Below are positions 4,584-46,873 of a stretch of 64,000 nucleotides of DNA, one piece after another. The DNA comes from Escherichia phage moha. The notes under the pieces were generated by a model. The model was not told the origin of the DNA. It saw only the letters and a program-made list of their open reading frames with translations, and did not search any database. The DNA is taken from the sequence record MN850590.1; one strand, given 5' to 3'. How positions within the stretch are numbered: the first letter of the stretch is position 1; each line of letters opens with the position of its first letter. The position numbers and the translations under genes are program-made.

Positions 4584-4613
4584 TTTAGTGTCCTGTGGTT
4601 TAGATTACATTAT

Positions 4614-4621
4614 TATTTATA
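4614..4621 (-). promoter_or_regulatory. late promoter (TATAAATA) for gene 22
   Basis: Plus strand TATTTATA about 31 nt upstream of the gene 22 start. Confidence 0.5.
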
Positions 4622-5258
4622 ATGCTTTTAAACTCTCTGCGAGAGCTTTAAATGCTTCATCAGCACTGTTTTTGGTGATTTCCACCGAATTTTCTGATTC
4701 TGATATTTGTTTAGGAGTAACCCAAGCATCTGGAGCAGAAGGTCCCCATACGGCATCTACGCCGACGGTTAATTTAAATCCTTCGTTCACGATACGGTAC
4801 CCTTTATTGGTGTCGGTTAAAGAACCAAGACCACGAGAGGAAACACCTGGAATCCAACCAGCACGTATATTAGCAGCTAATTTATCACCGGGACCATGGT
4901 CGCCTTCAATAATTCTAGCACGTCCATATACATCGTTTCCTTTCCACCACATATCTTCAATAATGATAGCGGCTTGCATAGGGTCAACATTTGCACGAGG
5001 TGGATGGTTTAATTCTCCAAGGGCTTGTTTGGTTGCGACTTGTTCTTTAATATAGTCACTTACTGCTTTTTCCAAAACGCGTTTAGGATATAAACGTTTA
5101 TTTCGGTTAACAACCTCTGCCTGAAGAAAAATACCTTCTATATAAAGCCCTGGTTTTAAGCCAGAATCTTTTCCATCATGAGATTCCAACATTGGAACGC
5201 CATCAATAATCTCACCGGGTTGACCCCAAGTTTCAATAAGTAACTCGGGTTTATTCAT
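4617..5258 (-). CDS. 21: prohead core protease gp21
   Basis: 213-aa ORF (T4 gp21 is 212 aa) in the expected position. Confidence 0.9.
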   Translation of the reverse strand: MNKPELLIETWGQPGEIIDGVPMLESHDGKDSGLKPGLYIEGIFLQAEVVNRNKRLYPKRVLEKAVSDYIKEQVATKQALGELNHPPRANVDPMQAAIIIEDMWWKGNDVYGRARIIEGDHGPGDKLAANIRAGWIPGVSSRGLGSLTDTNKGYRIVNEGFKLTVGVDAVWGPSAPDAWVTPKQISESENSVEITKNSADEAFKALAESLKAL

Positions 5259-8175: not shown

Positions 8176-10158
8176 TTAGCCACCTACAGCACCAATTAGT
8201 TCGTCGAAATCGGCACCAGTTGCTGTTGCTACAAAGTTCAACGTAATATAATTTATCGAGCGGGCAGGTTGTAAGTAGAAAGTAGCTACAAATTCATTAC
8301 GGTCGATAACTGCTGGAGTGTTATTGGTAGTATCACAAACAACTTTAAAGTTATATACACCACCAAGAGCTTTAATACCCTGTAGATATTGAGAAGTCTC
8401 TGTACGGAAAGAAGAACGGGTAAATGCGTTGTTCAATTCAAACAGGCGATATTTAGATGCTGAACCAATATTCGTTTTAACCATATTGAACAAACGACGA
8501 ACGTTAATACGGTCAAATGGCGAAGGAACAGAAGTGGCAGTTTTATCACCGTACAGAACATACCCATCACCACCAGTACCAGTAACAGGGTTAATAGCTT
8601 CCTGATACAAACGATCACGCTGCGCTTGGCGAGTTTCAATTGCAAGCTTAATAACGTTAAGAATTTGTCCACGGTTATAACCGGCTGGAGACATCCAAGG
8701 CTGAGAAATATTGTCTGTACGAGCACAAAGACCAGCGATATCAGCAGCTAATGGAACCCAACGATTCACGTCATTATATTTGTCATATTGATATTTATAG
8801 TTACCGTCAATAGCAGCATAAGTAGAACTTACATTAAAGTTATTATCAGTGTAAGTTCCTGACGCAGTACGCCAATCAACCAGATTATCAACTGCACGAT
8901 TAACAGGAATACCGACTATAGTTGCACGTGGCGGTGAGCAAAGAACCAAGCAATCTTGGCGAGAATCACCAATTGCTACAACATGTTTCTGAACTGTAGA
9001 AGCAACTTCTAAAGATTCACCTGCACAAGAACCGGCAATAAACAACTGCGCATTAACAGATTCGCGGTCAGCAAACAAATCCCAAGCTTCCATTAAATCA
9101 CCAGCGTCAACCGTTTCATTAGATGATAAGCCGCCACCCAGTTTGATTACGCCAGAGAAACCTTTTGGCCAACCTTGTGCAGTAGCGAAAATATAATTGC
9201 TTGCACCTTTAGCAAAGAAATCATCAATAAAGATATTACTACCATAAATATCGCGTTCACCACGTTTAGTAGAAAGAACTACGCTCTGAACTACAGCATC
9301 GTTACGACGAACTATAATTGCATATTGGTCATCAGTTTGTGGGCCATACCCAAAGATTGCTTTAGCAGTAGATGCGCGAGTACCACCATCAGGATAAATT
9401 TTTAACTGGGCTGAAGCACCTTTGTCATAGTCTGCTTTAGATACGATTTCAATTTCGAGCTGGTCGCCAAGTTCACCAGGATAAAGAGCAACTACGCCTG
9501 GGACACCATATTTTTTAATAGATTCTTGGAAAGTTAGAGAAGTAATAGCTTCTTCAGAAGTTTCAACTTCAGTTAACAGAATACCCGAATCGGTTACGAT
9601 AGAACCAATTGTAATAACGCCAGAAAGTCCAGAAGAAGAACTGGCAACTTCGGCGGTCCAGTTAGAACCCAATGCCGGATATTCATTAATTTCTTTTGCA
9701 CGAGCAATAATTTTACCGGTTGGGATATAAATGTTAAGAATTTTACCATCGACATCAACCGAAGTGACATAACCATCTGCTTCAACAGTTTCGGTCAAAT
9801 ACTTAACGATAATTTTATCACCAACTGCATAGTTACTACCAGCAGCAGAGATTGTGAATTCAATATTGCCTGCTACAGGAGATGAGTTCTTAGCAGTATC
9901 ACGGTCAACTGCGCGTACAACACGAAGGTCATTACCATATTGAAGGAAGTTCATAGCAGACATGAAATAATCTGCTGTATCCGTATTAGGAGTACCAAAC
10001 ATATCAACTAATGCAACTTCATCAGTGATTTGTTTAATCTGGAATGCAGGTCCCCATTGGAATTTTCCAGCCAGGGCAGCAGTACCAGTGGAGTTATTAA
10101 CTACAGTACTCTGTACGGTAGTTTCTTTGAGCTCAACGCCCGGAGAGAGAAGTGACAT
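8176..10158 (-). CDS. 18: tail sheath protein gp18
   Basis: 660-aa ORF (T4 gp18 is 659 aa) in the expected position. Confidence 0.95.
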   Translation of the reverse strand: MSLLSPGVELKETTVQSTVVNNSTGTAALAGKFQWGPAFQIKQITDEVALVDMFGTPNTDTADYFMSAMNFLQYGNDLRVVRAVDRDTAKNSSPVAGNIEFTISAAGSNYAVGDKIIVKYLTETVEADGYVTSVDVDGKILNIYIPTGKIIARAKEINEYPALGSNWTAEVASSSSGLSGVITIGSIVTDSGILLTEVETSEEAITSLTFQESIKKYGVPGVVALYPGELGDQLEIEIVSKADYDKGASAQLKIYPDGGTRASTAKAIFGYGPQTDDQYAIIVRRNDAVVQSVVLSTKRGERDIYGSNIFIDDFFAKGASNYIFATAQGWPKGFSGVIKLGGGLSSNETVDAGDLMEAWDLFADRESVNAQLFIAGSCAGESLEVASTVQKHVVAIGDSRQDCLVLCSPPRATIVGIPVNRAVDNLVDWRTASGTYTDNNFNVSSTYAAIDGNYKYQYDKYNDVNRWVPLAADIAGLCARTDNISQPWMSPAGYNRGQILNVIKLAIETRQAQRDRLYQEAINPVTGTGGDGYVLYGDKTATSVPSPFDRINVRRLFNMVKTNIGSASKYRLFELNNAFTRSSFRTETSQYLQGIKALGGVYNFKVVCDTTNNTPAVIDRNEFVATFYLQPARSINYITLNFVATATGADFDELIGAVGG

Positions 10159-34258: not shown

Positions 34259-34294
34259 GTTTACATAAGGATGATGGTGTGTTACTATCATCCT
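34259..34294 (+). promoter_or_regulatory. early-type promoter with the -10 region embedded in an inverted repeat
   Basis: GTTTAC at 34259-34264, TGTTACTAT -10, flanked by the 8-bp inverted repeat AGGATGAT / ATCATCCT. Confidence 0.55.
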
Positions 34295-34322: not shown

Positions 34323-34610
34323 ATGAAAACCTATAAAGAATTTATATCACCTGTTGCTAACGTTTCTACTCTGACCGAAGCAACCCTTACTTCCGAAGTT
34401 ATTAAAGCAAATAAAGGACGTGAGGGTAAACCAATGATTAGCCTGGTTGACGGCGAAGAAGTAAAAGGTACTGTTTACTTAGGGGATGGATGGTCTGCTA
34501 AGAAAGACGGCGCTACTATTGTTATCTCTCCGGCCGAAGAGACCGCACTGTTTAAAGCTAAGCATATTTCTGTAGCTCAGCTTAAAATTATTGCAAAAAC
34601 TCTTCTGTAA
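34323..34610 (+). CDS. ipI: internal protein I-like protein with capsid-targeting leader
   Basis: 95-aa ORF starting MKTYKEFI..., matching the T4 internal-protein leader MKTYQEFIAE; position between 57B and the tRNAs as for T4 ipI. Confidence 0.7.
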   Translation: MKTYKEFISPVANVSTLTEATLTSEVIKANKGREGKPMISLVDGEEVKGTVYLGDGWSAKKDGATIVISPAEETALFKAKHISVAQLKIIAKTLL

Positions 34611-34613
34611 GTA

Positions 34614-34652
34614 GTTTACATCTTGATAGGACTATGTTATAGTAGTCCTATC
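34614..34652 (+). promoter_or_regulatory. promoter-early stem-loop (PeSL-type) cassette, copy 1
   Basis: GTTTAC, spacer, then GATAGGACTA-tgttatag-TAGTCCTATC: a perfect 10-bp inverted repeat around the TG-t-TATAGT -10. Confidence 0.65.
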
Positions 34653-34680
34653 AAAACAAATGAGTAAATGGAGAAATAAA

Positions 34681-34866
34681 ATGAAACGCGCTGAACTGAT
34701 TCGTAATGTTGCTGTAGTAATTGCTTCAATGGCTTTTAGTTTTTCGATGTTTGTAGGATTCATTTGCGGACTACTGACAACAACTGAAAATTCTATCTCA
34801 TTGGTAGTAGCATTTCTAATCGGTTTAATCGCTATCGTTATGGATAAAATTGCAAAAGGTGAGTAA
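34681..34866 (+). CDS. small membrane protein (61 aa, hydrophobic)
   Basis: ATG after a GGAG in the conserved leader; the ORF track start (34660) is probably upstream of the real one. Confidence 0.5.
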   Translation: MKRAELIRNVAVVIASMAFSFSMFVGFICGLLTTTENSISLVVAFLIGLIAIVMDKIAKGE

Positions 34867-34867
34867 A

Positions 34868-35230
34868 ATGAAATATCACGTATATGCGGATTTTGAAGCA
34901 AATCCTTCTAAAGACCCTGATTGTCGTTTGATACGCAAACCATTTGATTCAGCAGCTCAAGCATGGACTTGGATTAAATCTAAATCGCCTGGTTATATGT
35001 TCTTTGAAGTAGTCGATGACAATGGTACACTGCATCCAGAACCTACAGAAACTATTAATTTCCTTCTGTTTGCTGGTTACGACTGTTATCCTCTTGGCGG
35101 TATTGATGATCTTGTTGCTACAGGAAAAACTGTTGAGGCTCTTCGCGAAATTTATAAAAACGCAGAAGAAAATTTTGACTGGTATCATATTGTTGATGCT
35201 CACACCTTTGAAGTGGTGGAACATTCATGA
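34868..35230 (+). CDS. hypothetical protein (120 aa)
   Basis: ORF with start coupled to the upstream stop. Confidence 0.5.
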   Translation: MKYHVYADFEANPSKDPDCRLIRKPFDSAAQAWTWIKSKSPGYMFFEVVDDNGTLHPEPTETINFLLFAGYDCYPLGGIDDLVATGKTVEALREIYKNAEENFDWYHIVDAHTFEVVEHS

Positions 35231-35517
35231 TTCTTTATGCTAAGGTAAAATCCGTTGAGAATGGATATGAAAGCGACCGAGCTGCAGCTAAAGCACTAGT
35301 CGATTACTATGGTATTTTGACCCACTTTGAAGTTGAAAAGGTTTACGTCGACCGTTCATCTTCACAGGTTAAATTACTTTGGGAAGACCGCAAATTTAAT
35401 AGTGTGAACTTTGATTTCTTTATTGAAACAGAAAAAGGTCCTCTTGAATATGATATTTTCAAGAATCCTTTGAAATTACGTTGCATTGAATATAATTACA
35501 TTAATATGGTACGGTGA
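35227..35517 (+). CDS. hypothetical protein (96 aa)
   Basis: ORF with ATGA overlap to the upstream gene. Confidence 0.5.
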   Translation: MILYAKVKSVENGYESDRAAAKALVDYYGILTHFEVEKVYVDRSSSQVKLLWEDRKFNSVNFDFFIETEKGPLEYDIFKNPLKLRCIEYNYINMVR

Positions 35518-35521
35518 GTAA

Positions 35522-36037
35522 ATGAATATTTGTTTAGGCAGTACAATTCCTAAGGGTTACGTAATTGATGTCACTACTTGGGAAAATGACGGCGACAACT
35601 ATAAAACTAAAACGTTGTTTGGTGTAGAAGAGCATGAGCTCCAACAGTTTAAATATCTTTTGAAGAAATTTAAGAGCCGTCATTCCAGCACTAAAGCTGA
35701 ACGTTACTGTGGTAATACACTATTCAGTGATTGTTCGCTTTTAATCTATGAATACTTGGTTGAAGGATTGTTCTCAGACCAGCTTTATCCAGAATTCATT
35801 AAAAAGGTCTTTGATATTGAAGTCGACCTTGGTAATAAATCTGAAGAAGACGAATCGCGTGTATTTGACCTGTTCCATGAGAATGGATATTTAGTATCAG
35901 AAGGTCTCATTGATATTCTTGGTCATGCTTCTGAATATTATGATTATGATTTCTTGCGTGTAGTTGAATGTGTTGAATTTGCTTATATTGAAGAAGAAAT
36001 CGTTTTGCCGACTGTTAAAATGATTGATTTGCTTTAA
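35522..36037 (+). CDS. hypothetical acidic protein (171 aa)
   Basis: ORF in the co-directional early cluster. Confidence 0.55.
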   Translation: MNICLGSTIPKGYVIDVTTWENDGDNYKTKTLFGVEEHELQQFKYLLKKFKSRHSSTKAERYCGNTLFSDCSLLIYEYLVEGLFSDQLYPEFIKKVFDIEVDLGNKSEEDESRVFDLFHENGYLVSEGLIDILGHASEYYDYDFLRVVECVEFAYIEEEIVLPTVKMIDLL

Positions 36038-36116
36038 GAATTATGTGTTATTATTAATTCATACCCTCTATTACCAAAGGTGCTCTAAAGTGCCTTTCAT
36101 AATAGAAAGTTATTTA

Positions 36117-36191
36117 GGCCCTGTAGCTCAATGGGAGAGCTGTCAGCTCATAACTGATAGGTAGCTGGATCGAAACCAGCCAGGGTCACCA
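36117..36191 (+). tRNA. tRNA with CAT anticodon (Met, or Ile2 if C34 is lysidinylated)
   Basis: Manual fold: acceptor GGCCCTG/CAGGGTC, D-stem GCTC/GAGC, anticodon stem GTCAG/CTGAT with loop CT-CAT-AA, T-stem GCTGG/CCAGC, discriminator A and encoded CCA. Confidence 0.8.
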
Positions 36192-36194
36192 ATC

Positions 36195-36271
<77 letters not shown>

Positions 36272-36289
36272 ACTTTAAGTGAGGAAAAT

Positions 36290-36634
36290 ATGAAAGGCAA
36301 TATTTATCTGGTAGTTCATGACTTAACGTTTTATTTTAACGAACGTGAAACAGTTATTTCCGACCGGTTGATTAATTCGTTATATCAACACGCTGATTAC
36401 GTTTATTTCCAAAATGAATTTGGCCATTGGAAGTTTCTTAAAAACCGTTCAGGGTTAACTAGTTTTGAATACTTTGACCGTAAAGACCTTTTAAACGAAA
36501 TTCCATTACAACATCGGTTCCAGAAACGCGAATCACTATACTATTGTCGTCATATACCAAATGCTGAATGTGTTAATGAAGCGATTAATCTATGGCGGCG
36601 GCGTCGAGAGCAAATTGATGATATGCCAAAATAA
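36290..36634 (+). CDS. hypothetical protein (114 aa)
   Basis: Start taken at the ATG after GAGGAAAA, downstream of tRNA-Arg; the ORF track start (36242) overlaps the tRNA. Confidence 0.5.
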   Translation: MKGNIYLVVHDLTFYFNERETVISDRLINSLYQHADYVYFQNEFGHWKFLKNRSGLTSFEYFDRKDLLNEIPLQHRFQKRESLYYCRHIPNAECVNEAINLWRRRREQIDDMPK

Positions 36635-36639
36635 GAAGC

Positions 36640-36944
36640 CGGGTCGCTACCGGCAAGTCGTCGGACTGATGTTCCCTGAGTAAGGACTGGTCTTAATAAA
36701 TCTTTACGATTTGTTAATATCCCCTTACATCACAGCAGAAACGGCGCACCGAATTATCGATTCGAGGAAATATCTTTGCCGTAAGCCGAGTAGCGTTTTT
36801 GACGGAACGTTCGGATATGGTCGAGATATGGCCTTTTAAAAATATTGAGTAGCGTCAACTGCTTAATAACCGGGTTCGAATCCCGGCGTTTCGTACAAAC
36901 ACTTGCCTTAGCAGGTGGAACCCCGACAAGGTTGCCGCAAGGCT
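36640..36944 (+). ncRNA. candidate structured stable RNA region
   Basis: About 300 nt with no credible ORF, containing several hairpins and a canonical tRNA T-arm motif (CCGGG-TTCGAAT-CCCGG at 36870-36886), ending at a strong terminator. Confidence 0.25.
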
Positions 36945-36978
36945 TAGCCCCTTCCGAAAGGTCGGGGCTTTTTGGCAT
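36945..36978 (+). terminator. rho-independent terminator (34-nt sequence repeated exactly at 52157)
   Basis: TAGCCCCTTCCGAAAGGTCGGGGCTTTTTGGCAT: GC-rich stem, GAAA loop, T5 tract. Confidence 0.8.
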
Positions 36979-37018
36979 AATAATAAATAGATAAGTTAAT
37001 TAACTTAGGAAAAGCAAC

Positions 37019-37483
37019 ATGAAATCATACGCTGAATTTTTGACTGAACAATCTAGTTCAGATGTAAAAGCCGCTGCGATTGCAGCAATTCAAGCAGGTA
37101 AATATTCTTACAAAGACGCCTCTGATGAAGAACGTTTCCGTTTTATTAGAGATTTTAAAGCCGAAGGTTTTACTAATGCTAATACTGTTAGCCGAGTTTT
37201 TAAAAGCCTAGCTGCATCAGGTGAATTGTTCCAGAAAGCTACAGGTAAAGCACCTGCGCCAAAAACAGACCCTAAAGCAGCTCAAGAAAAAAATATCGCC
37301 AAAGGAATTATTTCTAAGTATGAAGCAATTCTTAAAGAGCTTTTAGTAATCAAAACAGAAGGCCAGAAACTGGCACGAGCACATAGCTTCAAAGATAATC
37401 CTCACGCTCATAGCCTTGAGTATGTTGAAGATATCCAAAAACTTATTAAAGACCGTATCTGGTCTGCTAAACAAATTAAATAA
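37019..37483 (+). CDS. internal-protein-like protein with capsid-targeting leader (154 aa)
   Basis: N-terminus MKSYAEFLTE resembles the MKTYQEFIAE leader; followed by a terminator. Confidence 0.6.
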   Translation: MKSYAEFLTEQSSSDVKAAAIAAIQAGKYSYKDASDEERFRFIRDFKAEGFTNANTVSRVFKSLAASGELFQKATGKAPAPKTDPKAAQEKNIAKGIISKYEAILKELLVIKTEGQKLARAHSFKDNPHAHSLEYVEDIQKLIKDRIWSAKQIK

Positions 37484-37489
37484 TAGAAT

Positions 37490-37518
37490 GCCCCTTCCTT
37501 ATGGTTGGGGCCTTTTGG
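37490..37518 (+). terminator. rho-independent terminator
   Basis: GCCCC...GGGGC stem followed by CTTTTGG. Confidence 0.6.
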
Positions 37519-37549
37519 TATCTAGGGCATAAAAATATTTCATAAAGAT

Positions 37550-37578
37550 GTTTACTTCTTCTAAGGACATGATACTAT
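37550..37578 (+). promoter_or_regulatory. early-type promoter
   Basis: GTTTAC, spacer, TG-a-TACTAT, then the TAGACTTATCAA leader and AGAGGA Shine-Dalgarno. Confidence 0.6.
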
Positions 37579-37606
37579 AGACTTATCAACCATAGAGGAA
37601 AATGTT

Positions 37607-38110
37607 ATGAGTCTTTACACTGAACTGAATAAAAAATCTGAAGAATCTGCTGAAACTATTTTTAAAAACGTGCAAAAGCGTATTTTGGAAAAGATGTATG
37701 ATGCAGCATCTAAAGGTGAAAAATCTTGCCGGTTTCCGATGAGGTGTTCTTCTGATTTATGCGCAAATACTATTGAATGGCTGGAAAGTGAAGGTCTTAC
37801 GGTAGAGAAAAACCCGGCGACTTCTATTGACGGCGAATCATATATTAGTATTTCTTGGGATAAATCAAGGGTAGAAGAGAAAGATGGTGATTGGGTTGTA
37901 GATGTTAAAACTTCTGATGGTGGACGTTCTGTTGAAGTTTCGGCTGTAGTTAAAGGTACCCACGAACAAAGGACTTGGGGTTGGGGTGGTGAAGAAAAAG
38001 AAATTGTTCTTAGTGTGATTGCCAGGTCAACTAGTAATAAAATTGCACAAAGCATCATTGACGCTGCAATTGCTGAAGCAGAAAAAATTTGCAAAATTAA
38101 AAATAAATGA
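37607..38110 (+). CDS. hypothetical protein (167 aa)
   Basis: ORF with promoter and Shine-Dalgarno; preferred over the overlapping antisense ORF. Confidence 0.6.
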   Translation: MSLYTELNKKSEESAETIFKNVQKRILEKMYDAASKGEKSCRFPMRCSSDLCANTIEWLESEGLTVEKNPATSIDGESYISISWDKSRVEEKDGDWVVDVKTSDGGRSVEVSAVVKGTHEQRTWGWGGEEKEIVLSVIARSTSNKIAQSIIDAAIAEAEKICKIKNK

Positions 38111-38169
38111 TGTACAAACGCCAAGGATGGTGGTACTATAGACTTATCAACTACAGAGGAGTAAACAAA

Positions 38170-38334
38170 ATGACTACTTTAATTATTTGGTTCGATGAAA
38201 ATGAAGAAACATACTGTGTGAATATTGGTGAAAGTCCAATGCCTGAATTTGAATCCTCGGATAAAAACTCTGTTGTATCTTGGGCTGAAGGTTATAAAGC
38301 AGCTAAAGGTGACGTTGAAATAATTTACATCTAA
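38170..38334 (+). CDS. hypothetical small protein (54 aa)
   Basis: ATG after CAGAGGAGTAAACAAA, the same leader as at 1840-1862. Confidence 0.5.
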   Translation: MTTLIIWFDENEETYCVNIGESPMPEFESSDKNSVVSWAEGYKAAKGDVEIIYI

Positions 38335-38380
38335 GTAAGTTTATGTTATAGTAGTCCTATCAAATCAAGAGGAAAACAAA

Positions 38381-38608
38381 ATGGCTAAAGTTAGTATTGA
38401 TGTCGTTGATTATGAATACACAGAAGAAGTTATTCGCAACCGCCACCCTGAAGTTCGTATCGATTCAGTCCAAGATTCCAAGTTCTGGACAACTGAGCTT
38501 AATCTGAGTGGTCCTTATGAAGCTGTTAAGAAGTTCATGGTTGAAGAATACTGCGAAGGCATGCACCCCGAAGACGCCAAGTTTTATGTCAATTTGATTA
38601 AAAAATAA
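38381..38608 (+). CDS. hypothetical protein (75 aa)
   Basis: ORF downstream of a truncated PeSL copy (right arm TAGTCCTATC at 38352-38361) with an AGAGGAAAA Shine-Dalgarno. Confidence 0.55.
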   Translation: MAKVSIDVVDYEYTEEVIRNRHPEVRIDSVQDSKFWTTELNLSGPYEAVKKFMVEEYCEGMHPEDAKFYVNLIKK

Positions 38609-38640
38609 TTTACAAACTCTTGAGAGCAGAGTATAATGCT
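38609..38640 (+). promoter_or_regulatory. sigma70-type promoter with the -10 inside an inverted repeat
   Basis: TTTACA, 17-bp spacer, TATAAT, with GAGAGCA / TGCTCTC arms flanking the -10. Confidence 0.6.
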
Positions 38641-38678
38641 CTCGTTGGATAATAAACCACCAATTGAAAGGTAATAAT

Positions 38679-39272
38679 ATGAACACACTGAAGAAACTTG
38701 TTGAATTCATCCGCACTAAACTTGGTACTGCTATGGCTAAAAATCTGACTGTCGAAGAACAGTATAACGCAGCTGCAGATAAGTTGATTACCCAAATCAA
38801 AGAACTAAAAACGGCTTCTGTTAAATCTATTAATGAAGAAAAACGTATTCGCGAACTTGTTAATGAAAAGAACAAGCAAGCCGCTTCTAAGGAACGTGAA
38901 ATTCGTAAGCTCCTGGCTGAAGGACAAGATGTTACCATGCATGCTAAGCTTGGTCTTCTGTATCGTCGAACTGCCGAACAACTTAATACAAAAGCTGACG
39001 GGTATGCCGCTATGCGAATTGAAATTGCTCGTAAGGTGGTTGAACTTGATGATGCTCGTCAGAATCTGGCAATCAAACTCGAATACATTCGTGAAACTCG
39101 AGCAGCCAATGCCCTTGGTATCTCTACGGCCGATGATGTAATTGAAATAGCTGCACTGACTAAGGTTGATATCGAAGACACTCTGACTCGTGTTGAAACG
39201 TTCAATGGCACTCCAGCCGGCGTCGAAACCACTTCTGCTGATGTACAAGAATATATTAACTCTTTGAAATAA
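38679..39272 (+). CDS. coiled-coil protein, possibly PspA/IM30-like (197 aa)
   Basis: Long heptad-rich helical sequence with an amphipathic N-terminus; assignment is by eye only. Confidence 0.4.
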
Positions 39273-39280
39273 AATAATAC

Positions 39281-39302
39281 GGAGGACTCCGGTCCTCCTT
39301 TT
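39281..39302 (+). terminator. rho-independent terminator
   Basis: GGAGGAC-tccg-GTCCTCC followed by TTTT. Confidence 0.7.
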
Positions 39303-39321
39303 GGATAATAAAGGAGTTAAC

Positions 39322-39924
39322 ATGCGAAACCAAAATAATGATATTGACTCAATGTTCGAAGAGTTCCGAGATAAGGTAAATCCACCTACGTCTTTAGTTG
39401 ATTCATTACGATATGTTGCAACCGGACGTAAATGGTACTGGTCGTCTTCTTATGAGACCACCGAGAAAACGGCTAGCCATAGCAGAAAATCTTTATTAGC
39501 CCCAGGTATTATGATTCATGATATCGGAGCTATTGCTAAACTAGTTGCAGACCATGATATTAGATTCACCGATTTCGTTGCTCCTACATGGTCTGTTTGT
39601 TGTTTAAACACTGAATGGGAATATATCAGCGAACGCTCTAAAGATTATTATGGTTTTAGAGATAAGCTTCTGAGGTCTAATATGTTTTATATCGATACAG
39701 AAGTTCTAGTCGATAATAAAAAATATTACTTTACGTTAATCATCGATTCTGAAACTATGTATGAAGGCAAGCCTTTGCTTAAAAGAGTTGATGCTTTAAG
39801 TGCTATTGATGCGCTTTATGAAACTATGGTTGTTAGTCCTAATTTCACTAACAATTTAATCCTTGAGCAATTTATTATGGAATGTAGAGAATATGTCAAA
39901 GCCAACCCTATACATGCCAAGTAA
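39322..39924 (+). CDS. hypothetical protein (200 aa)
   Basis: ATG after an AAGGAG Shine-Dalgarno. Confidence 0.55.
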   Translation: MRNQNNDIDSMFEEFRDKVNPPTSLVDSLRYVATGRKWYWSSSYETTEKTASHSRKSLLAPGIMIHDIGAIAKLVADHDIRFTDFVAPTWSVCCLNTEWEYISERSKDYYGFRDKLLRSNMFYIDTEVLVDNKKYYFTLIIDSETMYEGKPLLKRVDALSAIDALYETMVVSPNFTNNLILEQFIMECREYVKANPIHAK

Positions 39925-40285
39925 GCCCTGGGCGTATGAATACAAGCGTAAATTAATCCCAAATGAAGTACTATTTGGCCCTATTTTAGCTTTAGCATTT
40001 TTAATCTTTATGATTATAGGAGCTGTTTTAGATTCTAGTGAAGTTATATCGTCTGATGCAGTGTTTTTACTTATTATAGCCGGGTCGTTTATTGTGCCAT
40101 TTTTATTAATGCCTATTAACTGGGTGGGATATTGGTACCAAGGACGTCATTATAGAGCTCGAGTACGCGAATGGAAAATTCAATGTGCAAAAGCTCAAGC
40201 TCAGTATGATGAAGCTGTTAAAAAGTATGAATATGAAGAAGCTATGGAATTCGTTAAGGAAATAAGATGCAAAAGCCTGAACTGA
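39893..40285 (+). CDS. hypothetical membrane protein; start uncertain
   Basis: ORF with two hydrophobic segments; candidate starts at 39863, 39893 and 39914. Confidence 0.4.
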   Translation: MSKPTLYMPSKPWAYEYKRKLIPNEVLFGPILALAFLIFMIIGAVLDSSEVISSDAVFLLIIAGSFIVPFLLMPINWVGYWYQGRHYRARVREWKIQCAKAQAQYDEAVKKYEYEEAMEFVKEIRCKSLN

Positions 40286-40383
40286 ATTTATGCTGTTTAC
40301 GCTTCTCAAATGATTAGTTATAATGAACTCCTAGCTAGACGTGAAAATGAAACAATCGAAAACTTTATTAAGGAATGTAGAAA

Positions 40384-40689
40384 ATGAGTAAGATTATTGA
40401 AATTAAAGTACCAGAGTTTAATGATGCCAAATCCGCTTCAGATGCAATTTATAAACTTCTGAATCAAGCTGAACGTATCGAAGAAGAAGCAACAAAGATC
40501 GCAGACCAATATGCCGTATCATTTTCTGTAGGTGATTATGGTAGCGGTCGTACTTATTATCCTAAGGGTGAAATCGTATCCCAGTGGATGAAAAATGAAA
40601 TTGAAAATAACGGTGGCGATGTTAAGCGTGAAGGTAATGGTTACATTATTACTGAAGGTGCTTGGGTTTCGTCTTCTGCGTTGTGTTAA
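40384..40689 (+). CDS. small protein, paralog family member 1 (C-terminal GAWVSSSALC)
   Basis: 101-aa ORF; shares a C-terminal W-V-S/A-S-S-x-x-C motif with the next two ORFs. Confidence 0.55.
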   Translation: MSKIIEIKVPEFNDAKSASDAIYKLLNQAERIEEEATKIADQYAVSFSVGDYGSGRTYYPKGEIVSQWMKNEIENNGGDVKREGNGYIITEGAWVSSSALC

Positions 40690-40698
40690 GGAATCATT

Positions 40699-40971
40699 AT
40701 GTCTAAAGAACAAACCGAACTGGCTGAAGCTGTAGCAAAAATCTATGCAGCTATTGAGGCTGCCAAAGAAATTGCTGATAAACAAAACACAACATTCAAC
40801 TTGTACCCAGCTTATGGTATGGGTGGAACCTATCATTCACCCGGACATCTTAAAGCCGATCTTGAACGTTGTACAAAAAACGGCTATGCTGAATGGGCTG
40901 ACGTTTACCAATACGACTACAACCTGAGCCTCGAAACTGGTGGTTGGGTCGCATCTTCTCACACTTGCTAA
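40699..40971 (+). CDS. small protein, paralog family member 2 (C-terminal GGWVASSHTC)
   Basis: 90-aa ORF in tandem with the previous one. Confidence 0.55.
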   Translation: MSKEQTELAEAVAKIYAAIEAAKEIADKQNTTFNLYPAYGMGGTYHSPGHLKADLERCTKNGYAEWADVYQYDYNLSLETGGWVASSHTC

Positions 40972-40980
40972 GGAAACAAT

Positions 40981-41178
40981 ATGTCTCGTGAATTAGATTG
41001 TGCTGTACGTACGGCAGTAGCTGCCCTGGAAAACCTGTTCCAAATTGCAACAGAAGAACGCGAAGAAGTTACATTATGGATTGAAGATAACGCAGGTCTG
41101 AATCTCCAGGACGCGATCTCATTATCCCACAATAGTATCACTGTTCAAGGCTGGGTATCATCTAGTTATTCTTGCTAA
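40981..41178 (+). CDS. small protein, paralog family member 3 (C-terminal QGWVSSSYSC)
   Basis: 65-aa ORF in tandem with the previous two. Confidence 0.55.
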   Translation: MSRELDCAVRTAVAALENLFQIATEEREEVTLWIEDNAGLNLQDAISLSHNSITVQGWVSSSYSC

Positions 41179-41182
41179 AACA

Positions 41183-41221
41183 GTTTACAACAAGATAGGG
41201 CTATGTTATAGTAGTCCTATC
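41183..41221 (+). promoter_or_regulatory. PeSL-type cassette, copy 2
   Basis: GTTTAC, then GATAGGGCTA-tgttatag-TAGTCCTATC (one mismatch in the left arm). Confidence 0.6.
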
Positions 41222-41240
41222 AAAACAAATGGAGTCCACA

Positions 41241-41480
41241 ATGATTTATTACGAAAGTATCGGAACCAAAGTGGTTGGTAAAACCATTACTCGTGAAAAG
41301 TTTGCAAAGATATTCGATATGCGTTATAAAAAATCTGAACACAAAGGCATCCGATTCGAAGATGCGCACTGTACAATTTGCCCTTATAATGAAGACATAA
41401 ACGGTACAATCGTTCCATTGGTAGAGGCTTCACATGATGACCTCTGGGATGAATATAATATCGCATGTCGTGAAATTTAA
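41241..41480 (+). CDS. hypothetical protein (79 aa)
   Basis: Start taken at the ATG after the GGAG in the leader; the ORF track start (41229) lies inside the Shine-Dalgarno. Confidence 0.5.
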   Translation: MIYYESIGTKVVGKTITREKFAKIFDMRYKKSEHKGIRFEDAHCTICPYNEDINGTIVPLVEASHDDLWDEYNIACREI

Positions 41481-41508
41481 GTTAATGAATTAATCCGAGG
41501 AAAATATT

Positions 41509-42465
41509 ATGATGTTAGTTATTGGTTCTCGTGCACTTCACTATCACGGTCTTATTGATTCTAGCGCTATTAAAAATAGTGATTGGGACTTTATTGCGGA
41601 CCAATGTTCTTGGAATGCATTCAAAAATCAAATGATGGGTGTATATGTTCACCAAGATAACCCTGATGTCCAAGTTTTCAAATGCTTCCATAATGGACGC
41701 GAAACTCATTTTGAAGCATATATTGTTCCGGCAATCACTAATGTCCGTGAATTAGTCGGTGAACTCACTCCTGAAGATTTCACGTCTTCTTATGACCTTT
41801 TAAAATACGCCAAGAAAAATTTGACTAAAGACCGTTTGAACGGGTTTTACTGGGCAACTCCTGAGATATGTCTTGCAATTAAGATGTCTCATCGTTTCAA
41901 GAAAAATAATCCATTCTTTTTAAAGACTATGAACCATATTCAGTATCTTCGTGGTAAAGGTGTTACACTGAACGATGAACTTACTGAAATTATGCTGAAA
42001 CGCCAGAAAGAAACCTTGAACTATGCTCACCCAGTTCTTGACACTTCTAAAAGTGCGTTCTTTAAAGATGACATCTATACATATGACCATGATACTATTC
42101 ATGAAGCCATTGCACTAACAGACCGTCCGGCGTATACATTTTATATGAAAGATGGTTCTGAAGTCATGACCTCACGCGAGAAGTTCGAATCGTTACCAGA
42201 AATGGTCAAATTGGCCGGCGTATACGAAGAATCATGTGTACTAGCATTAGAACGTTCTCAAATTCCTAATGACTTTAAAATTAACCCTGAAGCCAGTTTT
42301 ATGATGGCATTGGAAAAAGTCTGTACAAGCATCACCTCTGGTTGGTTCCGTGAGTACGCATACGAGAACTATTATGAAGTAGTGGCTATGTATCATAAGC
42401 TCGGCAAAAATGATTACATCAAACGGTTTAAAGAAAATTTTCATATGGTAAAACCTTTCAAATAA
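41509..42465 (+). CDS. hypothetical protein (318 aa)
   Basis: Long ORF; N-terminus IGSRALHYHG...SDWDF loosely resembles a nucleotidyltransferase GS...DxD motif. Confidence 0.55.
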   Translation: MMLVIGSRALHYHGLIDSSAIKNSDWDFIADQCSWNAFKNQMMGVYVHQDNPDVQVFKCFHNGRETHFEAYIVPAITNVRELVGELTPEDFTSSYDLLKYAKKNLTKDRLNGFYWATPEICLAIKMSHRFKKNNPFFLKTMNHIQYLRGKGVTLNDELTEIMLKRQKETLNYAHPVLDTSKSAFFKDDIYTYDHDTIHEAIALTDRPAYTFYMKDGSEVMTSREKFESLPEMVKLAGVYEESCVLALERSQIPNDFKINPEASFMMALEKVCTSITSGWFREYAYENYYEVVAMYHKLGKNDYIKRFKENFHMVKPFK

Positions 42466-42477
42466 TTTCGCAAAACT

Positions 42478-42515
42478 GTTTACACAATTATAGGACTATG
42501 TTACAGTAGTCCTAT
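42478..42515 (+). promoter_or_regulatory. PeSL-type cassette, copy 3
   Basis: GTTTAC, then ATAGGACTA-tgttacag-TAGTCCTAT; both arms are complementary to each other. Confidence 0.6.
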
Positions 42516-42536
42516 TAAAAACATGAGGAGAATATT

Positions 42537-42842
42537 ATGAAATTAACAGACACCAATCGAATCGGTCTTTTAACAATATTTGCATCACCTTTTTACGCAG
42601 CCCTTTCTGTTGCAGTATTACAAAAGGCTTACGATATGGATGGTGTTCCTGGTTTTGTATTCTTATCGCCGTTTTTGCTATTCGTTGGAGCTTTGTTATT
42701 ATATGCCACGACTAGTTTCGACCATAATGTCTGGGTCAATTATAAACGTAAATTGACCGAAGAAGAACACGCAGAAGCTCGTAAAAAAGCTATTGAATCT
42801 ACCAATCTAGAAAATTTCATTAAAGAATGTCGAGGAAAATAA
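42537..42842 (+). CDS. hypothetical membrane protein (101 aa)
   Basis: Two hydrophobic segments; GAGGAG Shine-Dalgarno. Confidence 0.55.
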   Translation: MKLTDTNRIGLLTIFASPFYAALSVAVLQKAYDMDGVPGFVFLSPFLLFVGALLLYATTSFDHNVWVNYKRKLTEEEHAEARKKAIESTNLENFIKECRGK

Positions 42843-42843
42843 T

Positions 42844-43530
42844 ATGAATAGTTCTAAAGTGTTTAATAGTCAAGCTCGTGCAGTAGGTGGTTTTGCTCAT
42901 GCGATTAAAAATGACCAGATTAAAAACGAGCCTATGTTCTTTAATTGCGATTTGAATTTTGCTTTTGATAACGGCGGTCCAATTACTCGTAGCTTTATCC
43001 AAAATCTCCCTGACGATTGGAAAGACTCGGATGTAGTATTTGATTCACGAGTCCACATGCTGATGCCTGGTTGGTACCCTGCTATCCCAGGTTATCACCA
43101 TGACGATGTTCCACGTCCTGATATTCCAGTTGGTCAACACTTTATTACTGCAGGACAACCCGATTATGACAATCCTCGCTATTTGTCTGAACATATTCTT
43201 GGTCTTGTTAACGCTGATGTGTGTCCTACTCATTTTGCAACAGGAACTGCAGAGTTCAGTCAGATTCCTGATGGCGAACTTATCTATCGTCAGTGGCACA
43301 AAGAAGTCCTCGAAAAAATTGAAAAAGGTGAACTAGAGAAATGGGAAGCTCCAGATCGTACTCTTCTTCAGTTTGATTGGCAAACATGGCACACTGGTTC
43401 TCGTGCAATTAGTAACGGATGGCGTTGGTTCGGACGTGTATCTCGTAATACAGACCGAGTTAAAAAGATTACCAATGAAATTCGTGTCAACGCTCAAGTT
43501 TATCTAGAATTCCCTATGGAAGGCTGGTAA
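42844..43530 (+). CDS. hypothetical protein (228 aa)
   Basis: ORF tightly coupled to its neighbours. Confidence 0.55.
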   Translation: MNSSKVFNSQARAVGGFAHAIKNDQIKNEPMFFNCDLNFAFDNGGPITRSFIQNLPDDWKDSDVVFDSRVHMLMPGWYPAIPGYHHDDVPRPDIPVGQHFITAGQPDYDNPRYLSEHILGLVNADVCPTHFATGTAEFSQIPDGELIYRQWHKEVLEKIEKGELEKWEAPDRTLLQFDWQTWHTGSRAISNGWRWFGRVSRNTDRVKKITNEIRVNAQVYLEFPMEGW

Positions 43531-44009
43531 TGATTAACAATAATATAGACGATGGCGACGAAGGTATTTCATACTATTCAGTAGATTGGACAGGATGTCC
43601 ATCCTACTTAGTGAAACACCATTGTCAAGCATTTAAAATCGACAAACCAGCAGGTATTATCGTGAACAGATACATTAATGGATATCAACCTATCGATGAA
43701 GTAATACGAACAACCCAAGCTGAGCTTGAAAAGTTTTTCAATAAGTGTCAATGGATAACAGGATGGATTATATTTGTACCGTCAGTGTGGTTTTTTAGTA
43801 CTAAAGTAAGTGCCTTTGCTATACTAGATATTATCGCTATCTTATTAGCATCTACTATCGTAAGTATAATTGGCGGTATTATTGGTGGAGGTACTGTAGG
43901 CATCATTATTAATCTTGTTAAAAGTAGTTTACAGGAACGTAAAGACAAGATAAAGGCCAAGAATAATGAAGTTGAACGTTTTATTACCGAATGCAGGAAT
44001 TTGAGATGA
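43530..44009 (+). CDS. hypothetical membrane protein (159 aa)
   Basis: TAATG overlap with the upstream gene; Gly/Ile-rich transmembrane segments. Confidence 0.55.
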   Translation: MINNNIDDGDEGISYYSVDWTGCPSYLVKHHCQAFKIDKPAGIIVNRYINGYQPIDEVIRTTQAELEKFFNKCQWITGWIIFVPSVWFFSTKVSAFAILDIIAILLASTIVSIIGGIIGGGTVGIIINLVKSSLQERKDKIKAKNNEVERFITECRNLR

Positions 44010-44242
44010 GTATAGCAATTTACATTAAATCAGAATCATGTGATAGTTATCTGTACACATACGATAAAGATGTGTCAGAAGAAAAAATCAAAGACGACCT
44101 TAATATGGACCTTGATATGTTCTGTCCTATTGCAGATTACAAACTTGCGGTCTCTAATAGTGAAAGTCCATCTAAAGAAACGCGCATTGAAGAATTTATG
44201 TCCGAATTAATGGCCAAATCATGGAACCGAGATGATGAGTAA
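44006..44242 (+). CDS. hypothetical protein (about 78 aa)
   Basis: ATGA overlap with the upstream stop; the ORF track start at 43991 is the alternative. Confidence 0.4.
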   Translation: MSIAIYIKSESCDSYLYTYDKDVSEEKIKDDLNMDLDMFCPIADYKLAVSNSESPSKETRIEEFMSELMAKSWNRDDE

Positions 44243-44690
44243 GAAAAATAAAGTGAAAGAACTATCAGCCGGTATTATTTTCCTTACCGAAGATAAAGAA
44301 TTATTCATGGGGCGTGTAACTGGTTCTCGTCCTAAAGGTTCTTTAGCTCATCGGTGGGATATTCCTAAAGGACGTGTCGAGCCCGGTGAATCTCCTATTG
44401 AAGCCGCTATTCGTGAATGCGAAGAAGAAACTGGGTTTACACAATATGACCCTGCCTTCCTGAAAGACCTAGGTGAACATCATTACTCAGACAATAAGAA
44501 TATTCATCTGTTCCTATATACCATCCCTGTAGAGCACGAGCAATTCAGAAACAGTGTTTGTAATTCCTATCATACATTCCCAGACGGACGTCAGATTCCT
44601 GAATTTGATGCATTCGCTTTAATTAAACCTTCTCAATGGGAATATGTAATGGGCAAATCATTATATAAGGTGCTCACTACCCTCCTATAA
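44232..44690 (+). CDS. nudE: Nudix hydrolase
   Basis: 152-aa ORF with a Nudix box (GRVEPGESPIEAAIRECEEETG), directly upstream of e in this window. Confidence 0.85.
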   Translation: MMSKKNKVKELSAGIIFLTEDKELFMGRVTGSRPKGSLAHRWDIPKGRVEPGESPIEAAIRECEEETGFTQYDPAFLKDLGEHHYSDNKNIHLFLYTIPVEHEQFRNSVCNSYHTFPDGRQIPEFDAFALIKPSQWEYVMGKSLYKVLTTLL

Positions 44691-44724
44691 GTAATAAATA
44701 CCTCCTATAAACGTGGGAGGTATT

Positions 44725-45213
44725 ATGAATATATTTGAAATGCTTCGTAATGACGAAGGTCTTAGACTGACTTTATACAAAGACACTGAAGGCTTTTGGA
44801 CGATTGGCATTGGCCATTTAGTAACAAAGAATCCGTCTTTAGCCGTAGCTAAAGCTGAACTTGACAGAATGATCGGGCGTAAATGCAACGGTACAATTAC
44901 CCTTGATGAGGCTGAAAAGCTATTTAATGAAGACGTCGATAAAGCCGTTCGCGGAATCTTGGGTAATGCTAAACTTAAACCGGTATATGATTCTTTAGAT
45001 GCGGTTCGTCGATGTGCATTGGTCAATATGGTCTTCCAAATGGGTGTAGCAGGCGTCGCTGGTTTTACTAATTCTCTTCGTATGCTTCAACAGAAACGTT
45101 GGGATGAAGCGGCAGTAAATCTAGCCCAATCTAAATGGTATCGTCAGACACCTAATCGCGCGAAACGCGTAATCTCAACATTTAAAACAGGAACTTGGAA
45201 AGCGTATATATGA
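44725..45213 (+). CDS. e: endolysin (T4-type lysozyme)
   Basis: Translation [32 protein letters not shown]... is near-identical to T4 lysozyme; start taken at the ATG after a GGGAGG Shine-Dalgarno. Confidence 0.97.
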
Positions 45214-45491
45214 AAACATATAGTGAATTTTTATCAGAATCTATTCTTAACGAAGCTACTGACACATTTGCAACTAAGCTAGGTGCAGCTTTGGTTGAAG
45301 CCGAAAGTCTATTAGCACGTATTTCTGAACTTGCTAGTAAGATAGATACTCGCAAATTTGAACGTACCAGCGATATCGCTAAGCTTGAAGCCTTGTTACG
45401 TATGTGCGATAAACCGGACGAAATCGCTAAGAATGGCTCGCTAATGAAACAACGTCTTGAAAAATATATTTCAGGCGCTTCAGAAAAATAG
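45210..45491 (+). CDS. internal-protein-like protein with capsid-targeting leader (93 aa)
   Basis: Starts [10 protein letters not shown]; ATGA overlap with the e stop. Confidence 0.6.
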
Positions 45492-45492
45492 T

Positions 45493-45546
45493 GTTTACTT
45501 CCTCCAAGGACTTTGATACTATACATTCATCAACTACTTGGAGGAA
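45493..45546 (+). promoter_or_regulatory. early-type promoter with a Shine-Dalgarno-sequestering inverted repeat, upstream of denV
   Basis: GTTTAC, then left arm TTCCTCCAAG (45499-45508), TG-a-TACTAT -10, and right arm CTTGGAGGAA (45537-45546) containing the GGAGG Shine-Dalgarno. Confidence 0.6.
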
Positions 45547-45549
45547 ATT

Positions 45550-45963
45550 ATGACCCGTATCAATTTAACACTTGTTTCTGAACTGACCGACCAACATCTT
45601 ATGGCTGAGTATCGTGAATTACCACGCGTATTTGGTGCAGTCCGTAAACATGTTCAAAACGGTAAACGTGTAAAGGATTTTAAAATCTCTCCAACATTTA
45701 TCTTAGGCACAGGTCACGTAACATTCTTTTACGACAAACTCGAATTTTTACGTTTACGTCAAATCGAGCTAATCGCTGAATGCTTGAAACGTGGTTTCAA
45801 AATCAAGGACACGACTGTCCAGGATATTTCCGACATTCCTGTAGAATTTCGTAATAATTATGTCCCGTCCGAAGCGTCCATTGCGATAAGTCAAGCACGC
45901 TTAGATGAAAAAATTGCTCAACGTCCGACTTGGTACAAATACTATGGTAAATCAATTTACTAA
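45550..45963 (+). CDS. denV: endonuclease V (pyrimidine dimer DNA glycosylase)
   Basis: Translation [34 protein letters not shown]... is near-identical to T4 endonuclease V; 137 aa. Confidence 0.95.
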
Positions 45964-45969
45964 GGAAAA

Positions 45970-46230
45970 ATGAAAATGTATCAAGAATTTATCATTGAAG
46001 CAGATGCCAAAGGTCCTAAATTTAAAGTTAAAGCTTTCATTGGTGATGCGGAAGACTTTGGCTCATTAAAACGTAATGGGTATTTTTTCTTAGGTGGCGA
46101 TGGTAAAGAAATCAACACCTATGCAAAACGTAGTGAAATTGCTTATGTTGTAGCAAGTCCTAAAGTAGATGTTGACGATATTGGATACGATTTTAACAAC
46201 TTCGGAATTATTTCTGGCGGTAAAGCTTAA
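45970..46230 (+). CDS. internal-protein-like protein with capsid-targeting leader (86 aa)
   Basis: Starts MKMYQEFIIE. Confidence 0.55.
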   Translation: MKMYQEFIIEADAKGPKFKVKAFIGDAEDFGSLKRNGYFFLGGDGKEINTYAKRSEIAYVVASPKVDVDDIGYDFNNFGIISGGKA

Positions 46231-46233
46231 ATT

Positions 46234-46263
46234 GTTTACGCTTAAGTATTAATATGGTATAAT
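46234..46263 (+). promoter_or_regulatory. early-type promoter (GTTTAC, 18 bp, TG-g-TATAAT)
   Basis: Near-consensus extended -10 followed by the CTATCAAAACAAA leader. Confidence 0.6.
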
Positions 46264-46294
46264 TACTCTATCAAAACAAACAAGGAAACAAAAA

Positions 46295-46873
46295 ATGAAA
46301 ACATATAAAGAATTTATCGCCGAGGCCTTTGCAGGAAAAGCTCAAGGCATTAATAAGGACGAGTGGAATTATCGTGGCGGAAACGGCTTTGACCCTAAAA
46401 CTGCTCCACTTGAACGATATCTAGCCACAAAGGCTTCTGATTTTAAAGCCTTCGCTTGGGAAGGACTTCGCTGGCGTAACGATTTAAATATTGAAGTTGA
46501 CGGACTTAAATTTGCTCATATTGAAGATGTTGTTGCTAGTAACTTAGACGCAGCTTTTGTTAAAGCCGACAGTGACCTTCGTCGCTGGAATTTAAAACTG
46601 TTCTCTAAACAAAAAGGCCCGAAGTTTGTGCCTAAAGCAGGTAAATGGGTTATTGATAATAAATTAGCTAAGGCTGTCAACTACGCCGGTCTTGAATTTG
46701 CCAAGCATAAATCATCATGGAAAGGTCTTGATGCAATGGCTTTCCGTAAAGAATTTGCCGATGTTATGGCTAAAGGCGGCTTTAAGGCAGAAATAGATAC
46801 CTCTAAAGGTACGTTTAAGGACGCTAATGTTCAGTATGCTTACGCCGTTGCTAATGCGGCCCGTGGTAATTAA
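46295..46873 (+). CDS. internal protein III-like protein with capsid-targeting leader (192 aa)
   Basis: Starts MKTYKEFIAEA; similar in size to T4 IPIII (194 aa). Confidence 0.65.
   Translation: MKTYKEFIAEAFAGKAQGINKDEWNYRGGNGFDPKTAPLERYLATKASDFKAFAWEGLRWRNDLNIEVDGLKFAHIEDVVASNLDAAFVKADSDLRRWNLKLFSKQKGPKFVPKAGKWVIDNKLAKAVNYAGLEFAKHKSSWKGLDAMAFRKEFADVMAKGGFKAEIDTSKGTFKDANVQYAYAVANAARGN

Follow-up and report, generated by a model that had tools for sequence, protein, structure and literature searches.

Five genes in a 64-kb stretch of the genome of Escherichia phage moha (MN850590.1; the full stretch is called the window below) encode proteins that begin with the capsid-targeting sequence (CTS) of the phage T4 internal proteins (Ips). 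We put the probability at about 0.8 that all 5 are T4-type internal proteins, which would be packaged into the head, cleaved by the prohead protease gp21, co-injected with the DNA, and directed against restriction or other host defenses. The genes all lie on the plus strand and are referred to here by their start coordinates: an ipI ortholog at 34323–34610 (95 amino acids [aa], start MKTYKEFISP), a leader protein of the family phrog_2280 at 37019–37483 (154 aa, start MKSYAEFLTE), a leader-bearing Ip5-like internal protein at 45210–45491 (93 aa), an internal protein of the RB69 gp125 type at 45970–46230 (86 aa, start MKMYQEFIIE), and an ipIII ortholog at 46295–46873 (192 aa, start MKTYKEFIAE). 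The toolkit that these genes represent is long known and variable; 4 of them belong to recognized internal-protein families, and the fifth, 37019, is an unrecognized member at an additional locus.

When both strands of the window were scanned with the back-translated leader pattern ATGAARNNNTAYNNNGARTTY, there were exactly 5 matches, which are the starts of the 5 open reading frames (ORFs), against an expectation of 0.01 from 100 shuffles, and a chance origin of the leaders is excluded. Relaxed protein patterns revealed no sixth leader ORF of at least 40 aa in the window. Each start is preceded at 6 to 14 nt by an AGGAAA-type ribosome-binding site. The original prediction, which was made from the letters of the sequence, had named these 5 starts and described the protein bodies as unrelated to one another beyond the leader; both statements are borne out, the latter by BLASTP, which found no mutual similarity among the bodies. 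It had also assigned the genes to 4 separate loci. The locations are indeed separate, but they are better read as 3 regions: the ipI locus on the 57B side, a site following the tRNA genes and rnaD/rnaC, and the e-denV-vs.8 region, which carries 3 leader genes distributed on both sides of denV. The classical variable ip loci, beside 57B and beside e/denV, house 34323, 45210, 45970, and 46295, and 37019 falls outside both.

Leader anatomy and processing machinery

A stretch as short as residues 1–10 of IPIII is enough to direct a protein to the capsid; targeting depends mainly on residues 4 and 7, with residues 8 and 10 governing processing, and propeptides of internal proteins range from 10 to 19 residues (reviewed in PMC9026906). 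Alignment of the N-termini, proposed earlier as a check on the leader and its cleavage site, shows Tyr4 and Phe7 in all 5 proteins and the protease motif [L/I]-x-E in every one, with its Glu at position 10 in 4 proteins and at position 19 in the IPI ortholog. The latter has Ile8-Ser-Pro10 together with Leu-Thr-Glu at residues 17–19, the exact arrangement of T4 IPI. Among 22 leaders from T4, T2, T6, RB69, and database homologs, Tyr or Phe at position 4 and Phe7 are kept, and Leu or Ile at position 8 is combined with Glu10 in most. The codons differ among the 5 leaders of the window (TAT/TAC, TTG/TTA/ATA/ATC, and GAA/GAG), and selection therefore acts on the peptide rather than on the DNA. Cleavage by gp21 is predicted after Glu10 in 37019, 45970, and 46295, after Glu10 and possibly also Glu15 in 45210, and after Glu19 in IPI.

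The machinery that would handle such leaders is encoded in the same window. A tblastn search with T4 gp21, the prohead protease that removes them, matched 4626–5258 on the minus strand (88% identity over 211 aa), and gp22, the scaffolding core protein to which the leaders are thought to bind, was found at 3774–4583 on the same strand (77% identity to T4 gp22 over 270 aa). Also detected by tblastn were gp68 and gp67 (81% and 60% identity to T4), and gp20, gp23, and gp24 are encoded too.

Orthologs of T4 IPI and IPIII

The 34323 gene product is the IPI ortholog: its sequence is that of RB69 IPI without a difference, and its identity to T4 IPI is 88%. The Pfam profile IPI_T4 (PF11634) is matched over its full length, positions 1–76 of 76, by residues 20–95 (E = 1.3e-50, 169.7 bits against a cut-off of 25), and chain positions 1–76 of the nuclear magnetic resonance structure of mature IPI* (PDB 2JUB) align to the same residues (E = 5.8e-42). 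Because Pfam, the identity to T4 and RB69 IPI, and 2JUB all agree, the mature N-terminus is placed at residue 20, so that the propeptide comprises residues 1–19 (34323–34379), ending LTE/A (a slash marks the cleavage site here and below), and mature IPI* comprises residues 20–95. Protection against GmrSD has been reported for RB69 IPI (PMC6024577). The 46295 gene product is the IPIII ortholog, with 92% identity to T4 IPIII over 192 aa, a match to phrog_5341 that covers positions 1–192 of 192 (E = 3.8e-117), and the leader MKTYKEFIAE/A.

The window has no ortholog of the third T4 protein, IPII. In BLASTP comparisons, the 5 ORFs align to T4 IPII mainly in the leader, with nothing significant beyond it (best E = 0.004), and the sole contact with phrog_7857, the family of T4 IPII, is a weak one from 37019 (E = 0.0067, residues 1–43).

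Both orthologs lie behind sigma-70-like promoters with a TG, on the plus strand: TTTACA-17-TACTAT at 34260–34288 upstream of ipI, and TTTACG-17-TATAAT at 46235–46263 upstream of ipIII. The promoter comparison covered the ip genes of T4, T2, and T6, ipI and ipIII of the window, and the homologs of 37019 in phages Bas36, Bas45, and Bas46. An early-type promoter GTTTAC-N17-TAnnAT precedes T4 ipI, ipII, and ipIII, T2 ip4, ip5, and ip7, T6 ip6, and ipI and ipIII of the window.

The ipIII promoter sits in a 64-nt spacer (46231–46294), which is all that parts the 86-aa gene from ipIII. At this spacer, Bas46, Bas45, and RB69 insert an extra leader gene of the ORF124c type (90–104 aa; phrog_3966, "unknown function"), a presence/absence difference among phages that are about 95% identical.

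Cargo proteins on both sides of denV

The ATG of 45210 overlaps the stop codon of the lysozyme gene e (ATGA). Its product belongs to phrog_3499, annotated as "internal head protein" (E = 3.4e-46), and shares 47.6% identity over 84 aa with T2/T6 Ip5 (E = 6e-24); the names Ip4 to Ip7 are taken from GenBank record notes and follow the nomenclature of Repoila et al. 1994. It is in the same family as RB69 gp127 (RB69p127), and a note in the T6 record equates Ip5 with RB69ORF127c. By these matches we class 45210 as a divergent Ip5, and given this divergence the same target cannot be assumed. The leader cut site is predicted before Ser11, and a second motif, L-N-E/A, ends at residue 15, where T2/T6 Ip5 has Ile-Thr-Glu. 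Bas37_0260 of phage KarlGJung (Bas37) was considered as a homolog of 45210 and ruled out, being a 77-aa protein of the Ip6 type; the Ip5-type gene is its neighbor, bas37_0261.

The 45970 gene starts 6 nt after denV, and its product carries the leader MKMYQEFIIE/A. It is nearly identical to RB69 gp125 (RB69p125), which RefSeq labels "internal head protein," and is found in 216 phage records. Residues 1–84 match phrog_2667 (E = 4.9e-20), a family that also contains RB69 gp156 (RB69p156), to which 45970 is 31% identical in a MAFFT alignment. RB69 gp156 resembles T2 Ip7 by eye, a likeness that was not aligned, and a pairwise BLASTP of 45970 against T2 Ip7 was not significant (E = 0.46). We refer to 45970 as a putative cargo of the RB69 gp125 type. 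Its AlphaFold model has a predicted local distance difference test score (pLDDT) of 69, with 1 of 5 models confident; no PDB fold matched it below E = 0.27, and 2JUB was missing from the best 50 matches listed.

In databases, the 86-aa internal protein is often represented by truncated copies or copies with internal deletions, and a 38-aa fragment family in PHROGs, phrog_35655, corresponds to its C-terminus, suggesting that this gene may decay frequently. The internal-protein block from e through denV to ipIII (45210–46873) shows 95% to 98% protein identity to Tequatrovirus PaulHMueller (Bas45), whereas the homolog of 37019 in that phage reaches only 76%, a pattern which suggests that the denV-side block may have been exchanged recently across genera.

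A leader protein outside the classical loci

The modest novelty of this window is 37019, a leader family that is unrecognized in databases and located at a third locus. The window adds nothing that is new in principle; the family is widespread, with homologs in 511 phage records, still "hypothetical" in all records and cluster members listed, and outside the Ip hotspots of the literature. Its PHROG, phrog_2280, is annotated as "unknown function." The leader, MKSYAEFLTE/Q, would leave a predicted mature protein of 144 aa that is Lys-rich, with an isoelectric point (pI) of 9.6.

Homologs of 37019 are 95% to 100% identical in Mosigvirus relatives and about 74% identical in many Tequatroviruses, match in the N-terminal half only in Klebsiella phages, and are missing from the equivalent T2, T4, and T6 loci. 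The leader is kept in homologs at 47% to 79% identity, its key positions in those as distant as 47% to 60%, while codons and neighboring residues vary. When 1.8 billion representatives were searched exhaustively with HMMER, 37019 matched only 8, all of them phage relatives. Distant relatives keep the leader (MLKFNEFLAE, MLEYSEFLKE, and MKFKEFLIE) and a conserved N-terminal domain (AGKYSY..SRFQFARDM) and differ in their C-terminal parts, and some homologs have a second L-x-E at residue 15, as in Ip5 and IPI. The AlphaFold model (pLDDT 74) consists of a disordered leader, a 3-helix N-terminal domain, a disordered Ala/Pro/Lys linker, and a helical hairpin. Foldseek found nothing better than E = 2 for this model in the PDB, and in BFVD at E ≤ 0.001 its only matches were 2 uncharacterized phage proteins, which at 82% and 63% identity are close relatives and not analogs in fold. 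T2 Ip4, which at 157 aa has the length of the Tequatrovirus homologs, was rejected as a homolog because the leader alone aligns.

Directly upstream of 37019 lies a homolog of the T4 rnaD/rnaC region (36629–36978, plus strand; 350 nt, 92.6% identical to T4 rnaD+rnaC), which ends in a terminator-like hairpin with a T run at 36952–36967 on the same strand. There is no Rfam family for this homolog, and Rfam reports just the 2 nearby tRNAs. The hairpin is followed on the plus strand by a late-promoter-like box, AATAAATA, at 36982–36989, which has 1 mismatch from the T4 sequence TATAAATA and starts 37 nt upstream of the ATG. The same box stands at −37 in Bas46 (ChristianSchoenbein), and exact TATAAATA occurs in Tequatrovirus homologs, at −44 upstream of bas45_0250 and at −46 upstream of bas36_0245. 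Late transcription of the 37019 family, predicted from these boxes, would fit a head component. The box is confined to this family, with ipI and ipIII having early-type sigma-70 boxes instead; late promoters for all 5 genes were ruled out, as no exact TATAAATA lies within 200 nt upstream of any of them.

In Bas36, Bas37, and Bas46, the homolog of 37019 is followed by a second leader gene, which encodes 187 aa (MKTYAEFLTEAAKLPSE..., phrog_2280). This gene is bas37_0243, at 4529–5092 of the Bas37 locus sequence, and occupies 4607–5170 and 6493–7056 in the other 2 locus sequences. Copies occur in 165 phage records, and almost all of them are at least 95% identical. The window lacks it, its place being occupied by 37607–38110, and in RB69 it is frameshifted (ORF149c and ORF148c). 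Although both proteins are in phrog_2280, the profile of the 37019 family matched that of the 187-aa paralog no more than weakly (26% probability, over the C-terminal 25 residues).

Proposed function and mechanism

IPI, IPII, and IPIII each inhibit one distinct type IV restriction enzyme of the GmrSD family, with no cross-protection (PMC12373910), and Bas37_0260, the 77-aa leader protein of the T6 Ip6 type at the ipI locus of Bas37, protects against McrBC (2025 preprint, bioRxiv 10.1101/2025.11.20.689424). All 4 Ip-type proteins with known function are inhibitors of type IV restriction. A homolog of Ip6/Bas37_0260 was not found in the window, where tblastn matched leaders only. Diverse Ips share the CTS as their sole common part (PMC3012670), and internal proteins are present at about 360 copies per head (PMC9026906). 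The DNA of RB69 carries arabinosyl-hydroxymethylcytosine (hmC) (PMC6024577).

In the mechanism that we propose, which follows established T4 biology, the leader (10 residues; 19 in IPI) would bind the assembling gp22 core, and the protein would be enclosed as the gp23 shell forms. gp21 would cut after the Glu of [L/I]-x-E, and the freed mature proteins, some hundreds of copies of each in T4, would stay in the head with the DNA and be injected along with it. They would then act before any phage gene expression, neutralizing host nucleases that attack sugar-modified hmC DNA. By close orthology, the most likely function of IPI and IPIII is to inhibit particular type IV enzymes of the GmrSD type that cut such DNA. 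The Ip5-like, gp125-type, and 154-aa proteins would most likely be further specific inhibitors of type IV variants or of other early-acting defenses; for these 3, we infer packaging, processing, injection, and targets by analogy, from the leader and from the pattern of the characterized Ips.

Injected proteins are at work before any phage gene expression and so determine whether modified phage DNA withstands type IV enzymes. As each known Ip blocks one enzyme variant, a catalog of the Ips in a phage used for therapy or as a model helps to forecast which hosts it can infect. The 37019 family offers a cheap and well-defined candidate for assays against GmrSD, McrBC, and other defense systems. 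The view of the extra cargoes as candidate anti-defense effectors is in keeping with published inhibition of GmrSD by IPI, IPII, and IPIII and of McrBC by an Ip6-type protein. The bodies are not all orthologs of the T4 proteins, 2 being clear orthologs (IPI and IPIII) and 3 having no T4 counterpart. The latter are the 154-, 93-, and 86-aa proteins that the original prediction singled out as extra candidates; the 93- and 86-aa families already carry the RefSeq label "internal head protein," and the phenomenon is long known.

Transposon data for Bas37 were taken from the published HIDEN-SEQ tables; the host comparisons considered here are those for CFT073 (against K-12) and CFE299. Insertions in the Ip5 gene bas37_0261 (9364–9621 of the Bas37 locus sequence) are depleted about four-fold on the uropathogenic Escherichia coli strain CFT073 (log2 fold change −2.09, adjusted p 0), with no effect on CFE299. 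CFT073 has a GmrSD homolog, c5421 (PMC4437046). Insertions in the neighboring 57B are also depleted on CFT073 (log2 fold change −1.56), and a polar effect is possible; the authors of the HIDEN-SEQ study do not discuss the depletion of bas37_0261, whose product shares only 48% identity with 45210.

Several observations weigh against the proposed mechanism. Virion mass spectrometry or proteomes for Mosigvirus or Tequatrovirus relatives, which could bear on the predicted packaging and cleavage of 37019, 45210, and 45970, were not found in the literature. The bodies of these 3 proteins have no sequence or structural similarity to any inhibitor of known mechanism, and sequence searches of PDB, Pfam, and NCBIfam with them returned nothing. 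Neither 45210 nor 45970 has a promoter of its own. For 37019 in particular, its site falls outside what the literature calls the "two Ip loci" (PMC12373910), and it lacks the early-promoter cassette that precedes ipI and ipIII of the window and the ip genes of T4, T2, and T6 that were checked. Its homolog in Bas37, bas37_0244 (75% identical), has no conditional phenotype in the 2 host comparisons (log2 fold change −0.11 on CFT073 and −0.30 on CFE299). In favor of an accessory role, on the other hand, bas37_0244 scores as non-essential.

A different picture of 37019 emerges from its 187-aa paralog, bas37_0243, which is listed as "Essential" in the Bas37 table, where 1 of its 48 TA sites is hit; for a protein with this leader, essentiality would be out of the ordinary. 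Taken with the post-rnaC locus, the predicted late promoter, and the conserved N-terminal helical domain joined to an exchangeable C-terminal part, this could mean that phrog_2280 is a third, unrecognized class of capsid-targeted proteins. We advance this idea tentatively and would not favor it at present. If true, the leader system would in some T-even phages deliver core proteins for assembly or for the initiation of infection, and not just dispensable restriction inhibitors.

Less probable still, and in our view unlikely, is that the extra cargoes, and above all the basic 154-aa protein, enter the head to work for the virion and not against host defenses, through neutralization of DNA charge, assembly of the core or head, or ejection. 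The Lys-rich composition and pI of mature 37019 would suit such a role, as would its late-promoter-like box, which is typical of structural genes, and the essentiality of the 187-aa protein from the same PHROG; IPIII mutants moreover show head-assembly aberrations, and lysines of internal proteins contact the DNA (PMC9026906; PMC3012670). The direct homolog bas37_0244 is, however, dispensable, and all Ip-type proteins of known function inhibit restriction. The 37019 gene is missing from the T2, T4, and T6 loci and its 187-aa paralog is missing from the window and broken in RB69; genes that come and go in this way between close relatives are unlikely to have a universal structural role. That 37019 is not packaged at all, its leader being a relic of cassette recombination or a favored translation-initiation region and the protein acting in the infected cell only, would agree with its position, its lack of an early-promoter cassette, its "hypothetical" annotation, and the lack of proteomic support in the literature, but is very improbable given the retention of the critical leader positions in homologs of 47% to 60% identity amid varying codons and neighboring residues, the gp21-type L-x-E site after the leader, and the second such site in some homologs.

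Comparison with other phages

Among the T4-type phages, the window falls in the RB69 group (Mosigvirus). In a search with 14 kb around the 5 genes, nucleotide identity was about 95% to Bas46, phiC120, and PhAPEC2 (Escherichia) and to Shigella phage Shf125875. Variable internal proteins with nothing but the leader in common have been on record since Repoila et al. 1994, as cited in PMC12373910 and PMC3012670.

With T4 the window shares the leader, the cleavage motif, the protease, and the scaffold, the IPI and IPIII orthologs, and placement on the 57B side and on the e/denV side. It differs in lacking IPII, in having 3 cargo bodies without a T4 counterpart, in the position of denV, which lies between ip genes here but beyond them in T4, and in having one gene at a third site after rnaC. 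The likeness to RB69 is closer: IPI is identical, gp125 and gp127 are nearly identical to 45970 and 45210, the order e-gp127-denV-gp125 is the same, and ORF149c, at the post-tRNA site, is in the same PHROG as 37019. RB69 nevertheless lacks IPIII, has the gp156, ORF123c, and ORF124c types that the window lacks, and carries as its post-tRNA gene a truncated form of the 187-aa type rather than the 154-aa type. There are at least 8 leader genes in the equivalent 22 kb of RB69, including IPI (gp155), gp156, gp125, gp127, ORF123c, ORF124c, and ORF149c, and 5 is therefore an ordinary number; Bas45 has 6, and Bas46 has one more than the window.

T2 and T6 have the leader in common with the window, as well as Ip5 (48% identity to 45210); a link of 45970 to T2 Ip7, by way of phrog_2667 and RB69 gp156, is tentative. 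Their Ip5 is at the ipI locus, whereas the Ip5-like gene of the window is next to e, and the window has no homolog of Ip4 or of Ip6, the McrBC-inhibitor type. Further afield, gp7, gp16, and gp20 of P22, the core proteins of T7, and the inner-body proteins of SPN3US and phiKZ likewise travel inside the head and leave it together with the DNA, and propeptides in the giant phages are cut by a gp21-like protease, but these proteins are mostly ejection conduits or inner bodies and lack a short, transferable N-terminal tag.

Genomic context

The gene order of the window is that of T4: gene 1, 57A, 57B, ipI, trna.4 to trna.2, the tRNAs, the e.x genes, nudE, e, and denV. There are 2 tRNA genes, at 36117–36191 and 36195–36271 on the plus strand, compared with 8 in T4 and at least 10 in Bas36 and Bas37. 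They have the anticodons CAT and Arg-TCT, and the CAT tRNA is assigned to Met by ARAGORN and to Ile/ATA in the Bas46 record. On the minus strand, a 169-aa ORF at 37615–38124 mirrors the plus-strand gene 37607–38110 nearly end to end and is probably a shadow ORF rather than a gene.

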